This document shows positions 2,127 to 5,111 of a DNA stretch of 6,524 bases, one piece after another. The notes beneath the pieces are model-generated. The model had not been told where the DNA came from, did not search any database, and worked only from the letters and a program-made list of their open reading frames with translations. Numbering within the stretch: position 1 is the stretch's first letter; the number at the start of each line of letters is the position of its first letter. The translations under genes and the position numbers were made by a program. Source of the DNA: a virus (taxonomy: Duplodnaviria; Heunggongvirae; Uroviricota; Caudoviricetes); IMG/VR virus record IMGVR_UViG_2703718859_000008. The stretch is one strand, 5' to 3'.

Positions 2127-2360
2127 TTATTCTCCGGTGTGCTGTTCGTTATATCTGTCGTGCAATGTCTCTATTTCCTGCAACTCATTTATTACAGGCT
2201 CAAGAAGCGTTATTAATGCCGTGACAATTCTTGATTTTTGTTTGTCGCGTTCATTGTCGCCAAGTGTTTCAAGCCATATGCGCAATATTTCCAGCATGTT
2301 TTCACTGTGAGAAAGTGCAAGAAATACGCGTTCTGTTGTTTCGTGGTAAATATCACGCAT
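2127..2360 (-). CDS. hypothetical small protein (77 aa)
   Basis: ORF with GAGGATG Shine-Dalgarno-like motif 7-8 nt upstream. Start overlaps the end of the upstream gene by 8 nt. Predicted helical, acidic. No recognisable motif. Confidence 0.55.
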   Translation of the reverse strand: MRDIYHETTERVFLALSHSENMLEILRIWLETLGDNERDKQKSRIVTALITLLEPVINELQEIETLHDRYNEQHTGE

Positions 2361-2586
2361 GGCTTACATCCTCAGGAAATTTTCTTCTGTAACGCGCCTC
2401 TGCCACATATTCCGCATAATCGGCGGCGATATTCAGTACATCAAGCCCCGTTGATTTATATTCTCTCGTGGAAAGTAAGAAAAAAGCCGCTCTAATAAGT
2501 TCTGGCATTGACGAAAGCGCATCAGCCGCATCATCAGGAACGCCGGAAAATTCCTGTTTCAGGGAATTAAAACGATCATCACGCAT
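2353..2586 (-). CDS. hypothetical small protein (77 aa from ATG at 2586; ORF track extends to 2613)
   Basis: The ATG at 2586..2584 overlaps the stop of the upstream 79-aa gene in an ATGcgTGA arrangement, suggesting translational coupling. The upstream ATG at 2613 would lie deep inside the preceding gene. Confidence 0.45.
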   Translation of the reverse strand: MRDDRFNSLKQEFSGVPDDAADALSSMPELIRAAFFLLSTREYKSTGLDVLNIAADYAEYVAEARYRRKFPEDVSHA

Positions 2587-2818
2587 AACCCCCCCCATTT
2601 TCACAATCAGCAATCAGGATAGCTTTGGCCTCATTCAGCGCCATATCAGCACTAAGTTGCATAACCGCCAGCGAATGAGGGACGAAAGTCCCGGCATATT
2701 CTGTTTCACTGGTGGCGTGCTTATGTGCCCTGTCCGCGATAACAGAAATATCAATCAGCGCGTGCATCAGCGTTTTGATGGCTTCGGCGGCTGCGTCCGG
2801 TGTGGTTTTATTGTGCAT
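2579..2818 (-). CDS. hypothetical small protein (79 aa, MHNKTTPDAAAEAIKTLMHALIDISVIADRAHK...)
   Basis: C-terminal part of the 228-aa track ORF. The portion upstream of the ATG at 2818..2816 is Pro/Arg/Leu-rich and looks like off-frame translation. AGGGGGA Shine-Dalgarno about 6 nt upstream of this ATG. Confidence 0.45.
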   Translation of the reverse strand: MHNKTTPDAAAEAIKTLMHALIDISVIADRAHKHATSETEYAGTFVPHSLAVMQLSADMALNEAKAILIADCENGGGYA

Positions 2819-3368
2819 AGGTTTCCCCCTGGCGAATACGGGCGGCAAATACAGCAACACAACCGGACGGGCAACGGCTACGCGCTTCGCGTTCCGTCCA
2901 GGCGGTGACGTGGATGATTTGATGGTCTGACGCGCCAAAGATGATAAAGCGCCAGAGAAAGGCGGTTTGAGAATGTACAAGGGTAGGGATAGTAGCCATG
3001 TTGGCAGCCTCCTCAGTGTGGTTAAGATAACCGCCACCGGAAACGCCAATTTCGCTGGTGGCGGACTGTACAGGGTTGGCGTAACCGGACACTGAAGAAA
3101 CCGGCGCGGATTGCTCCGCCCCCGTACAGCCCACCATTGATAAGGTGTGACTATGCGGCACAAAAAAACACGCGGGGCGCGTGTTATGCGCTTCAGTTTT
3201 GCCCAGGACGCCAATCCCGGCACCCGTTTTATGAGGTGCGCGGGAATCATAGCTATTTTCGACACTGGCGATCAACTGGTTTTTTTCTCCGATATTCAGG
3301 GCCAGAAAACGCCACACAAAGGCCGTTTGTGTGTGTACAAGGTGTGGTATATGATTTACGGCAACCAT
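2808..3368 (-). CDS. hypothetical protein with two paralogous small modules (IPxLVHxQTAFxWRF motif twice) joined by a Gly/Ser/Ala-rich linker; possible in-frame internal start at 2999
   Basis: 186-aa ORF, first gene after the repeat-bearing intergenic region. GAGGAG Shine-Dalgarno 6 nt upstream of ATG 3368. A second in-frame ATG at 2999..2997 is preceded by GAGGAGG and begins the second copy of the motif. Differences between copies fall largely at third codon positions, consistent with protein-level conservation. Confidence 0.5.
   Translation of the reverse strand: MVAVNHIPHLVHTQTAFVWRFLALNIGEKNQLIASVENSYDSRAPHKTGAGIGVLGKTEAHNTRPACFFVPHSHTLSMVGCTGAEQSAPVSSVSGYANPVQSATSEIGVSGGGYLNHTEEAANMATIPTLVHSQTAFLWRFIIFGASDHQIIHVTAWTEREARSRCPSGCVAVFAARIRQGETYAQ
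3161..3184 (-). terminator. intrinsic-terminator-like hairpin plus T7 tract inside the coding region of the 186-aa ORF
   Basis: On the minus strand, 8-bp stem AACACGCG/CGCGTGTT with a 3-nt loop, followed by a run of T (plus-strand A7 at 3161-3167). In frame it encodes NTRPACFF. Confidence 0.3.
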
Positions 3369-3439
3369 AACGGCTCCTCGTTTACGTTGTTGGTTAGAAG
3401 CCCCGTTACTGCTCCTACAGTGCGGGGTTTCGTCTTTTC

Positions 3440-3545
3440 GTACATGAGATACACATAATCATCATGTGAGATACACGTTACATTGATGTGATATACATTT
3501 CAAGTTTTTTATATCTCACTTTACTGTATAGTGATATACACACAA
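3440..3545. promoter_or_regulatory. divergent promoter/operator region with phased GTGA(G/T)ATACAC repeats
   Basis: Direct copies at about 3445-3455 (TGAGATACACA), 3466-3476 (GTGAGATACAC), 3488-3498 (GTGATATACAT) and 3531-3543 (GTGATATACACAC), spaced about 21-22 bp or twice that. One inverted copy at 3511-3520 (ATATCTCACT). Lies between the start of the minus-strand operon (3368) and the plus-strand 100-aa gene (3563); AT-rich. Confidence 0.5.
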
Positions 3546-3562
3546 TAAACTGGTGATTAATT

Positions 3563-3865
3563 ATGTCCGTATACAAAAACGCAAAATCTCAAATGACAAC
3601 GCTCAGAGTCCCTCACGATGTCATGCAAGGCATGGAATCCGTTAAGCTGGACGGCGAGAGCAATGCAGGATTTATCGTAACCGCCATGCGCGGAGAAATA
3701 GCACGCCGCCAGGCAGAAGGCAGCGGAGAAAATCCCCTTGTGTCTTCACTGGATGCTCTGGCTAAGGTCGAACAAATCGGCATCAAAGCAGCGGAAGAAA
3801 TCGGGCAACTTGTCACCGTTGCACGCGAAGAACTCCAGCGTCGCAAGGCCAAAGAAGCGGAATAA
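3563..3865 (+). CDS. small putative DNA-binding regulator (100 aa; possible ribbon-helix-helix-like N-terminus), function unconfirmed
   Basis: Only convincing plus-strand ORF. GGTGA about 8 nt upstream of the ATG. N-terminal MTTLRVPHDV segment followed by predicted helices resembles a beta-strand-then-helix DNA-binding fold. Charged helical C-terminus. Followed by a plus-strand terminator. Confidence 0.5.
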   Translation: MSVYKNAKSQMTTLRVPHDVMQGMESVKLDGESNAGFIVTAMRGEIARRQAEGSGENPLVSSLDALAKVEQIGIKAAEEIGQLVTVAREELQRRKAKEAE

Positions 3866-3943
3866 TCCACCAGCAAACCACCACACTGATCACATTGCCC
3901 ACCAGCCAGCAAATCGCTATGATGTTCGGGCTTATGTTTAGTG

Positions 3944-3972
3944 TTTTCCCATTGGCGACCGCCCCCGGTCGC
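3944..3972 (+). terminator. rho-independent terminator for the 100-aa gene
   Basis: Stem GGCGACC (3944-3950), loop GCCCCC, stem GGTCGCC (3957-3963), followed by TTTGTTTTAT. Located between convergent genes (100-aa gene on plus, alpA-like gene on minus). Confidence 0.55.
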
Positions 3973-4000
3973 CTTTGTTTTATGTGTCATATGCTCCCCT

Positions 4001-4287: not shown

Positions 4288-4320
4288 GTGTGATATCACA
4301 CTATCGGTACGTGATATCAC
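4288..4320. promoter_or_regulatory. pair of palindromic operator-like sites (GTGTGATATCACAC and GTGATATCAC)
   Basis: Perfect 14-bp palindrome at 4288-4301 and perfect 10-bp palindrome at 4311-4320, centres about 21 bp apart. The second overlaps the stop codon of the 264-aa gene. Core resembles the repeats at 3445-3543. Confidence 0.5.
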
Positions 4321-5111
4321 TTTTGACGTTTCGGAACGTCACCAATATCACGCCCCAAATATTTCTGCCATGTCTGCCTGTGAGTGCTGGGTAGCTCAAC
4401 CCCTCTTTGCGCAGCGATAACCTCTATCATTTCTGCAATTTTGGTTACTGGTGTCTCCTCCAAATCCACATCCTGCATCTCAGGAATCAGTTTTATGAGT
4501 GCAGGTATTATCTCGGCTTTTTTAGCTATGGTTTTCGGAGATTCTCTATCACCTCCGCCATATACAGGTTTTGCCGCATAATCAAAATTCGAAAGTTCAT
4601 TTTCGAAAACGACTAATCTTTCCTCCGGAATAAACAACCCCCAAATTCCAGCTAAATATAGCTTTTTGTAATGTGCTTTTATGGTGTAAAGATGTTGTGG
4701 TTTGACGTCAACAGCATTGTGCGGACCTGATAATTCAACATCCACAAGATACTGCGACGGAATTGCAAAAAAACCCTTTAAATAATTTGCATACCAACCT
4801 GGCAGTCTGAATATCCCTGTGTCGGTATCCTCAACATAATCATCATTGTAATGAAGATAAGATATCTTATACATATCACTATCTATTACATTTCGTTCTT
4901 TTATCTGTTCAACATAATAACTTTCGCTATCATCTTCAAAAATCACTCTAGCAGAGCACTTATTCTCACTTATTAATAAGTCGTTTTCACCAATATATGC
5001 ACATATTTCAAGTCTATTGGTTGCCCCAAGATGTAGAATATCATCCACCGTGCAGCCGAGTTTTTTTGCTGCCATAGGCAAAGTATAATATACACGAGGA
5101 AAATCTTTCAT
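4317..5111 (-). CDS. uncharacterised 264-aa protein with N-terminal HTH-like segment (excisionase/AlpA-like HTH_17 pattern) and unknown C-terminal domain; AT-rich cargo gene
   Basis: AAGGTGG Shine-Dalgarno 6-7 nt upstream. ATG overlaps the integrase stop (ATGA). N-terminal YYTLPMAAKKLGCTVDDILHLGATNRLEI resembles a helix-turn-helix. Region about 4400-5100 is visibly more AT-rich than the rest of the window. Confidence 0.7.
   Translation of the reverse strand: MKDFPRVYYTLPMAAKKLGCTVDDILHLGATNRLEICAYIGENDLLISENKCSARVIFEDDSESYYVEQIKERNVIDSDMYKISYLHYNDDYVEDTDTGIFRLPGWYANYLKGFFAIPSQYLVDVELSGPHNAVDVKPQHLYTIKAHYKKLYLAGIWGLFIPEERLVVFENELSNFDYAAKPVYGGGDRESPKTIAKKAEIIPALIKLIPEMQDVDLEETPVTKIAEMIEVIAAQRGVELPSTHRQTWQKYLGRDIGDVPKRQK

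Follow-up and report, generated by a model that had tools for sequence, protein, structure and literature searches.

The 6,524-nucleotide (nt) stretch of viral DNA analyzed here (Caudoviricetes; IMG/VR record IMGVR_UViG_2703718859_000008), referred to below as the window, carries an open reading frame (ORF) in which a short protein motif occurs twice, each time behind a ribosome-binding site, and this raised the question of what a single frame with two possible starts encodes. The initial annotation interpreted the ORF as two paralogous modules of ~60 amino acids (aa) that may yield both a full-length two-module protein and a C-terminal single-module protein, took the third-position divergence between the copies as a sign of protein-level selection, did not recognize the family, and suggested structure prediction of each module and comparison with homologues. 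Its basic observations were reproduced: the 186-aa, ATG-initiated ORF is present at 2808..3368 on the minus strand; GAGGAG-type Shine-Dalgarno sequences precede both copies, at 3374-3379 for the ATG at 3368 and, as GAGGAG(G), at 3008-3014, 8 nt before the in-frame ATG at 2999; and no in-frame stop separates the two starts. The family, in contrast, proved recognizable. The entire ORF matched phrog_29966, aa 40-133 matched the Pfam family PF10554 (Phage_ASH; 63.2 bits versus a gathering threshold of 26), and aa 137-180 matched the NCBIfam model NF033153 (Icd-like; 62.2 bits with a cut-off of 25). Moreover, the earlier reading had overlooked that the ORF contains a promoter-like site, a terminator, and two RNA genes recognized by Rfam. 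With good confidence, we assign the region to a P4-like phage satellite or PICI, as the segment that holds its immunity functions and early leader; it is built like the eta/kil/cI region of P4 and the c4-icd region of P1. Its features are as follows.

3374-3379, minus strand: Shine-Dalgarno sequence GAGGAG of the long ORF, 5 nt before the ATG at 3366-3368 (sequence)
2808..3368, minus strand: long Eta-like ORF of 186 aa with an ATG start (ORF list; phrog_29966 covers aa 1-186)
3288..3368, minus strand: module 1, ~27 codons, apparent 5′ fragment of an Icd-like gene (repeat statistics; intact genes elsewhere)
3246-3275, minus strand: putative sigma-70-like promoter, TTGATC-18 nt-TATGAT, 6-7 nt upstream of the isrK-type RNA (promoter scan)
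3163-3239, minus strand: isrK/seqA-type leader RNA (Rfam RF01394, 66 bits versus a gathering score of 50)
3208-3214, minus strand: target b1, TTGGCGT, in the leader RNA (co-varies with the C4 loops)
3191-3197, minus strand: target a1, ACTGAAG, in the leader RNA (co-varies with the C4 loops)
3162-3185, minus strand: predicted intrinsic terminator of the leader RNA, stem plus U7 (terminator scan)
3054-3141, minus strand: C4/CI-type antisense immunity RNA (Rfam RF01695, 77.6 bits versus a gathering score of 45)
3089-3100, minus strand: C4 hairpin loop a′, TTTCTTCAGTGT
3076-3082, minus strand: single-stranded C4 segment b′, ACGCCAA
3043-3049, minus strand: target b2, TTGGCGT, in the kil/icd leader (7-bp helix with b′)
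3008-3019, minus strand: target a2, ACACTGAGGAGG, in the kil/icd leader (12-bp helix with a′)
2808..2999, minus strand: Icd/Kil-like gene of 63 aa (NF033153, codon-position variation, predicted fold, P4 Kil alignment)
2816..2818, minus strand: ATG of the next gene, overlapping the end of the Icd-like gene (stop at 2808-2810)

The long ORF thus begins upstream of the putative internal promoter and finishes as an Icd/Kil-like protein. The −10 hexamer of this promoter was invariant in 27 of 27 distinct cassettes, the −35 hexamer read TTGATC in 23 of the 27, and the site appears to be the counterpart of the P4 promoter PLE. In the window, both the promoter and the terminator are consensus matches. 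Within the C4 fold, 11 of the 27 pairs are maintained through two-sided changes among nine homologues. The separate c4-a1b1 model reached only 21.2 bits against 46.7 in the window, and an Rfam search for a second C4 copy upstream of module 1 found none in the window or in the related loci L005 and L008. The Phage_ASH segment (aa 40-133) is the same stretch that holds the promoter-like site, isrK, C4, and the leader; because this segment has neither a codon-position bias nor a predicted fold, the Pfam match may reflect conserved RNA-coding DNA rather than a protein domain.

The pairing between the C4 RNA and its targets was compared across related loci. The comparison set comprised 80 IMG/VR loci retrieved with the 63-aa protein as the only query and was extended by loci found via two homologous proteins and by P4; a scan of genome contigs gave only two loci, and it was the IMG/VR scan that provided the set. 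Six specificity types were found, P4 included. In each of them, a′ matches both a1 in the isrK leader and a2 over the inner Shine-Dalgarno sequence, and b′ matches both b1 and b2. Across the six types, cognate a′/a2 helices span 9-12 bp, compared with 4-7 bp for non-cognate combinations. The elements concerned read as follows.

Window: a′ TTTCTTCAGTGT, a2 ACACTGAGGAGG, b′ ACGCCAA, b2 TTGGCGT
L005: a′ CCTTTGACG, a2 TGTCAAAGG
L008: a′ TCTCTAGTG, a2 CACTAGAGA
L031: a′ TTCTTCGTTA, a2 TAACGAAGAG
L019: b′ AAGGCTAA, b2 TTAGCCTT
P4: a′ TCCTGTGAA, a2 TTCACAGGA

In the window, a2 contains the Shine-Dalgarno sequence of the inner start, and the a′/a2 helix covers GAGGAGG at 3008-3014. Since this Shine-Dalgarno sequence is the co-varying target of the upstream antisense RNA, initiation at 2999 is very likely genuine and regulated. 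The loop of a hairpin at 3401-3427 holds a sequence, CACTGTAGGAG, that also resembles a2; it was rejected as a third a-type candidate because its equivalents in L005 and L008 do not track the C4 loops of their own loci.

The gene that follows this start was recognizable on its own. The 63-aa product alone matched NF033153 at 58.9 bits (cut-off of 25) and aligned with P4 Kil, its ATG was invariant in all 27 distinct cassettes, and the start context GGAGGCTGCCAnCATGGCTAC was conserved, conforming to GGCTGCCAn(C/T)ATGGC in all cassettes retrieved, including that of P4. In the close relative L001, PGAP divides the same ORF into an "ash family" pseudogene and a 63-aa Icd-like coding sequence that lies at the equivalent place and has the same end. 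Furthermore, we counted the variable alignment columns of the 27 distinct cassettes by codon position. The counts at positions 1/2/3 were 14/14/28 in the Icd-like gene, 12/12/11 in isrK, 12/9/15 in C4, 9/8/10 in the leader, and 11/11/12 in the 60 nt upstream of isrK; the Icd-like gene alone among these five segments showed a third-position excess. An AlphaFold model, built from a 38-sequence alignment that excluded the P4 row, gave a beta-beta-alpha-beta fold with a pLDDT of 72-86 for approximately aa 132-182, whereas most of aa 1-131 had a pLDDT of ~30 and no secondary structure apart from one short helix at 118-126. Searching the model against the PDB with Foldseek returned no match with an E value below 1.5. 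Collectively, the C-terminal 63 aa are the sole part of the ORF with both protein-like evolution and a confidently predicted fold; these last 63 codons alone resemble a protein gene, and most of the remainder appears to encode RNAs or to be regulatory. Translation of the Icd-like gene and of the next gene is probably coupled, as the ATG of the latter lies within the end of the former. The next gene encodes a product that shares 91% identity with the N-terminal half of a 154-aa L001 protein.

The surroundings are those of a satellite. Neighbours in the window include an integrase, AlpA, a divergent gene of the YlcI/YnfO family, DUF4222, and a RepA/AAA_25 helicase, and relatives additionally carry SSB, PerC, and a capsid gene. 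In P4, the left-operon leader comprises PLE, the targets seqA and seqC, and the eta and kil genes, which are nested and overlap cI (Forti et al. 1999 and Sabbattini et al. 1995, as cited in PMC10111431 and PMC4825925). Within eta sits a constitutive promoter, the transcript of which is terminated early via CI/seqA RNA interactions and processed to the CI immunity RNA; Kil, a truncated Eta, is translated upon read-through, while full-length Eta is made only from the upstream late promoter, coupled to the alpA homologue, and its translation prevents termination (PMC10111431). The Rfam C4 and isrK profiles pick up relatives of CI and seqA (PMC10111431), and IsrK is a structural homologue of the P4 SeqA RNA (PMC4825925).

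The window largely reproduces this layout. As in P4, a C4/CI-type structured RNA, an upstream, target-bearing leader of the isrK/seqA type, and a downstream target over the ribosome-binding site of a nested C-terminal gene (63-65 aa) all lie in one long frame, which also contains a promoter-like site, and the context of the inner start is shared. The P4 genome (NC_001609) has one such ORF at 8168..8812, the C-terminal 65 residues of which begin with MATTLTPSHPEF...; it contains an isrK match at 8615-8692 and a C4 match at 8420-8507, in the same order as in the window. Alignment of the two ORFs through the C4 region and into the short gene gives 32% identity over 111 aa (E = 4e-8). The work of Forti in 1999 reportedly gave a length of 65 aa for kil and 197-199 aa for eta. 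Unlike in P4, the N-terminus of the long ORF in the window is unrelated to that of Eta and appears to be a fragment of an Icd-like gene. Furthermore, the long ORF is uncoupled from the alpA homologue in the window, where a separate 125-aa ORF (3613-3990) in a different frame and the divergent gene intervene after alpA, whereas the two are coupled in the relatives L011, L024, and L037. Spacing in the window is also 87 nt shorter, the a′/b′ specificity differs, and the replication gene encodes a RepA/AAA_25 helicase instead of the alpha primase. The 264-aa ORF at 4317-5111, equal in length to P4 cII, showed no similarity to it.

In immI of P1 and P7, the order is a1b1, c4 antisense RNA, a2b2, icd, and ant. 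The window shares with it an RNA of the C4 family that bears two recognition elements and has targets on either side, a downstream target that occludes the icd ribosome-binding site, and a product in the Icd-like family. In the P1-like phages D6 and RCS47, residues 46/47-178 of the query aligned by tblastn in one piece into the icd region, so the frame is continuous there too, and in D6 this region is the annotated "inhibition of cell division" gene. In contrast to P1/P7, satellite replication genes rather than ant lie downstream in the window, and the element is an integrase/AlpA satellite rather than a plasmid prophage. A third parallel is the isrK-orf45-anrP locus of Gifsy-1 in Salmonella, where an IsrK-type short RNA is likewise ended by an intrinsic terminator, and the longer RNA that arises when this is read through is processed to yield a second small RNA (PMC4825925). 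There, an ORF overlaps the RNA region, with conserved nucleotide but varying amino acid sequence (PMC4825925), to which the lack of codon-position bias in the RNA segment of the window is a parallel. However, the Gifsy-1 locus has an antirepressor as its downstream gene and an IsrK that acts as an activator in trans, and it contains neither an Icd-like gene nor a duplicated N-terminus.

The duplicated N-terminus of the window ORF is module 1. The internal repeat claimed in the initial annotation is significant, with a Smith-Waterman score of 77 compared with 25.4 ± 4.7 in 2,000 shuffles, none of which scored as high. Its core comprises I7-F21 in copy 1 (IPHLVHTQTAFVWRF, nt 3306-3350, minus strand) and I126-F140 in copy 2 (IPTLVHSQTAFLWRF, nt 2946-2990, minus strand). 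The two modules of ~60 aa did not hold up: the core is 15 aa long, clear similarity extends over ~16 residues, copy 1 stops after ~27 of 63 codons, and the Icd-like model matches the ORF once, with no second stretch in module 1. Longer relatives, such as P0010 and P0048, give two matches, and in relatives of ~202 aa it is a longer first copy (MAVRQHTPRLAHTQTAFVWRFIALSTAQPRVITIEATSEQEARQK...) that passes as the second stretch; in others, module 1 is shortened to a few residues, replaced, or missing. Elsewhere, module 1 occurs as the start of a stand-alone gene: its sequence is identical to the N-terminus of intact Icd-like genes of 65-66 aa. Because intact genes start identically and the copy varies or is absent in relatives, module 1 is best read as the 5′ part of another Icd-like allele, retained here as a fragment. 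Between the 45-nt cores there are 12 nucleotide differences, 8 of them at third codon positions by our own count. The third-position excess in the earlier claim therefore stands, but it is not a sign of present selection on a two-module protein; the divergence most likely dates from when both copies belonged to separate working Icd-like genes. Module 1 also contains a terminator-like hairpin at 3313-3333, followed by GCGTTTTCTG (terminator scan).

Forty-four of the 60 loci with module 1 are without the isrK/C4 cassette. In these cassette-less loci, the same leader, ATG, and first ~27 codons continue directly into ...SQIIHVTAWTER..., forming the intact 65-66-aa gene, and the Shine-Dalgarno sequence is TAGGAG in most and GAGGAG in one; in one of them, L003, an Rfam search found no C4. 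One of the relatives, L074, follows L020 as far as GCCGGAGAA and resumes the match at AGAATCTCAAATC, which in L020 lies exactly 360 nt later. Identity between the two is ~99% in the ~300 nt upstream and in the 3′ part of icd, and the joint is a 4-nt AGAA microhomology. A second, independent junction lies inside the conserved TGGCGTTTT in L047. Repeat-mediated deletion would be the simplest reading of the cassette-less forms, although the opposite direction, in which the cassette was gained, is also conceivable. Module 1 itself would have been left by the recombination that placed or exchanged the RNA cassette and would have been kept in frame. A more tentative idea, which we consider somewhat unlikely, is that the Icd-like direct repeats around the promoter/isrK/C4 cassette serve as recombination handles for in-frame loss, and perhaps exchange, of the module.

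Whether the long frame is itself maintained was judged from the segment upstream of the inner ATG. In these 300 nt, no in-frame stop occurred in 26 of the 27 distinct cassettes, the exception being L034, compared with 3-11 and 1-3 stops in the other two frames. It should be noted that frame −2 is likewise poor in stops (1-3) and that, among relatives this close, common ancestry rather than selection could account for part of the lack of stops in the RNA segment. From the isrK start, the inner ATG is 240 nt away in the window, 243 nt in L005, 240 nt in L008, and 327 nt in P4, all multiples of three. Three sequences carry +1 and +2 indels, 37 nt apart, that jointly restore the frame, and the N-terminus upstream of the promoter occurs in at least four junction types or architectures, each of them in frame. 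In L004 from Escherichia albertii, the upstream frame is broken and the isrK-to-ATG distance is 242 nt; since both L004 and L034 have a broken frame, the open upstream frame is not obligatory. On balance, we lean toward the view that openness of the frame is selected rather than a particular sequence and that the long ORF acts as an Eta-like translated leader. We likewise give a slight preference to a P4-eta-like role, in which ribosomes crossing the RNA cassette would break up the structures of the leader and thereby prevent termination.

Because the constitutive-looking promoter sits downstream of the ATG at 3368, the common transcript cannot encode the long form, which would be readable only from transcripts starting upstream. 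Candidate origins are alpA and the operator-rich segment at 3442-3556, which contains three operator-like direct repeats of 22-25 nt. A promoter is probably present upstream, because the cassette-less relatives, which have a near-identical leader, must express icd and the replication genes from there. A weak candidate promoter, TTGAAA-17-TAACGT at 3503-3475, was noticed by eye and was not reported by the promoter scan. In several relatives, a single open frame runs from just past alpA to the icd stop, as in P4; this continuity is broken in the window.

An alternative that we regard as unlikely holds that the long ORF is never meaningfully translated, that only the 63-aa gene and the RNAs are functional, and that module 1 is an inert recombination scar. 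The open frame would then simply follow from conservation of the RNA sequence and from recent shared ancestry, which would fit the "ash family" pseudogene called by PGAP, the absence of a codon-position signal upstream of 2999, the tolerance of a broken frame in L004 and L034, and the fact that cassette-less relatives dispense with the whole segment. However, both translation of P4 eta and its suppression of termination have been reported (PMC10111431), and the independent junction types and length differences are all in frame. Moreover, the leader and ATG at 3368 serve a stand-alone gene in the cassette-less relatives, and ribosomes should therefore load there whenever that RNA is present.

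Far less probable is the original view of a tandemly duplicated two-module protein whose full-length and C-terminal single-module forms are both functional. In its favour, the repeat is statistically significant, most differences between the copies fall at third positions, each copy is preceded by a Shine-Dalgarno sequence and an ATG, and relatives with a longer first copy match the Icd-like model twice. Nevertheless, copy 1, with its ~27 of 63 residues, is without the later strands and the helix of the predicted fold and is shortened, replaced, or missing in many relatives. Structure prediction did not yield a fold for each module, as only approximately aa 132-182 were modelled confidently, and the linker, which has no codon-position bias, is made up of a promoter-like site, a terminator, and two RNA genes. 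This ORF does not contain two complete, foldable homologous domains. Of the initial proposal, the inner start is well supported, and the idea that one frame gives a long and a short product has an experimental precedent in P4 eta/kil (Forti et al. 1999, as cited in PMC10111431); a full-length two-module protein is unsupported, and a translated leader is a more probable reading of the long product than a protein of two domains.

The least credible possibility, that the repeated coding segments are themselves the antisense targets (equivalents of seqA and seqC), conserved for RNA pairing and not as protein, could appeal to their position as direct repeats on both sides of the C4 gene and to a TGGCG in both copies able to pair with CGCCA of b′, but it is largely refuted by the co-variation of targets located elsewhere (a1/b1 at 3191-3214 and b2/a2 at 3008-3049), the repeat sequence remains unchanged when a′ or b′ changes, and TGG CGN TTY simply codes for the conserved WRF motif.

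Taking the region as a P4-like immunity region, P1 and P4 suggest how it would operate. While the element is resident, the majority of transcripts initiated at the internal promoter would stop early, and the processed C4 RNA would mask the ribosome-binding site of the Icd/Kil-like gene. With Icd/Kil untranslated, transcription would terminate before the downstream replication genes. The Icd/Kil-like small protein, if made, would inhibit host cell division or kill the cell.

Collectively, the ORF with the duplicated small protein is an ordinary member of the known RNA-immunity regions of the P4/P1 type, and the known mechanism in P1 and P4 is unchanged by these results. A modest new detail comes from the Icd-like repeats on either side of the cassette and from the in-frame difference of precisely 360 nt between relatives. 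A correction does follow for annotation, since the long ORF is widely annotated as an "Ash family" protein, an "Icd-like" protein, or a "transcriptional regulator"; this point is broad because the 1-kb region is matched in 1,977 of 5,426 complete E. coli genomes (~36%). The co-varying a′/a2 and b′/b2 types constitute a small catalogue of satellite immunity specificities. If the repeats do act as recombination handles, the outcome would be a chimeric intact Icd-like gene and a replication operon shifted from RNA immunity to control by the upstream operator region, and the in-frame repeats that flank the cassette suggest how immunity modules get lost or swapped.

The Icd-like gene forms the C-terminal 63 codons of the 186-codon long ORF, and the features that surround and punctuate this ORF in the window are as follows.

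Features in and around the long ORF
3613-3990 (-): 125-aa ORF with the Shine-Dalgarno sequence AGGGGAG and an ATG 10 nt past the alpA stop codon
3563-3865 (+): divergent YlcI/YnfO-family gene, crossed antisense by the 125-aa ORF
3445-3556: three direct repeats (22-25 nt each), TGAGATACAC...TGTGA plus offset variants, within the intergenic stretch that separates the long ORF from the divergently oriented YlcI/YnfO gene
3401-3427: hairpin CCCCG-N17-CGGGG, immediately 5′ of the long-ORF ribosome-binding site
3313-3333: 8-bp hairpin CACACAAA/TTTGTGTG followed by GCGTTTTCTG, within module 1
2579-2818 (-) and 2353-2613 (-): the two ORFs of the split downstream gene

The three direct repeats resemble operator sites to which a protein regulator would bind. 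In plus-strand orientation, the hairpin at 3401-3427 is followed by TTTCGTCTTTT and is therefore terminator-like in that direction; among relatives, its loop is highly variable, while the stem and the downstream TCTAACCA are conserved. Within module 1, the 5′ fragment of another Icd-like gene, the hairpin at 3313-3333 is terminator-like on the coding strand, given the GCGTTTTCTG that follows it. This hairpin is shared with stand-alone Icd-like genes and is absent from the second repeat copy.

Downstream of the Icd-like gene, and overlapping its 3′ end, is a gene broken into ORFs of 79 and 86 aa because of a single additional G in a poly-G tract (2589-2596; G8 in the window). The counterpart in a relative's locus (L001) carries G7 and constitutes an undisrupted 154-aa ORF. 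A sequencing error could account for the split, as could pseudogene status or phase variation.

Over aa ~22-138, its ′Ash′ part, the long ORF matches the 5′ ends of lambdoid-phage genes (SfV orf37, Stx phages, cdtI and 118970_sal3) that carry antirepressor, Rha or transcriptional-regulator annotations, as well as the c4-icd region of P1-like phages (D6 and RCS47). The former treatment of P4 cI as a protein-coding gene may be the origin of PHROG labels like 'transcriptional repressor'. At another relative's locus (L005), positions 395-529 gave Rfam matches to the sRNAs ES036 (38.1 bits) and STnc480 (87.6 bits), which adjoin the integration site of the satellite there.

The 125-aa ORF had no match in PHROG or Pfam. 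In six relatives (L011, L024, L037, L040, L045 and L046), one uninterrupted frame of 362-479 aa runs from an alpA-proximal ATG, located 11-20 nt past the alpA stop codon, through to the Icd stop codon. In the first three of these, the N-terminus reads MT/AxKTKATGGGRQW, as does that of the window 125-aa ORF. This arrangement is reminiscent of phage P4, in which eta is coupled to the alpA homologue.
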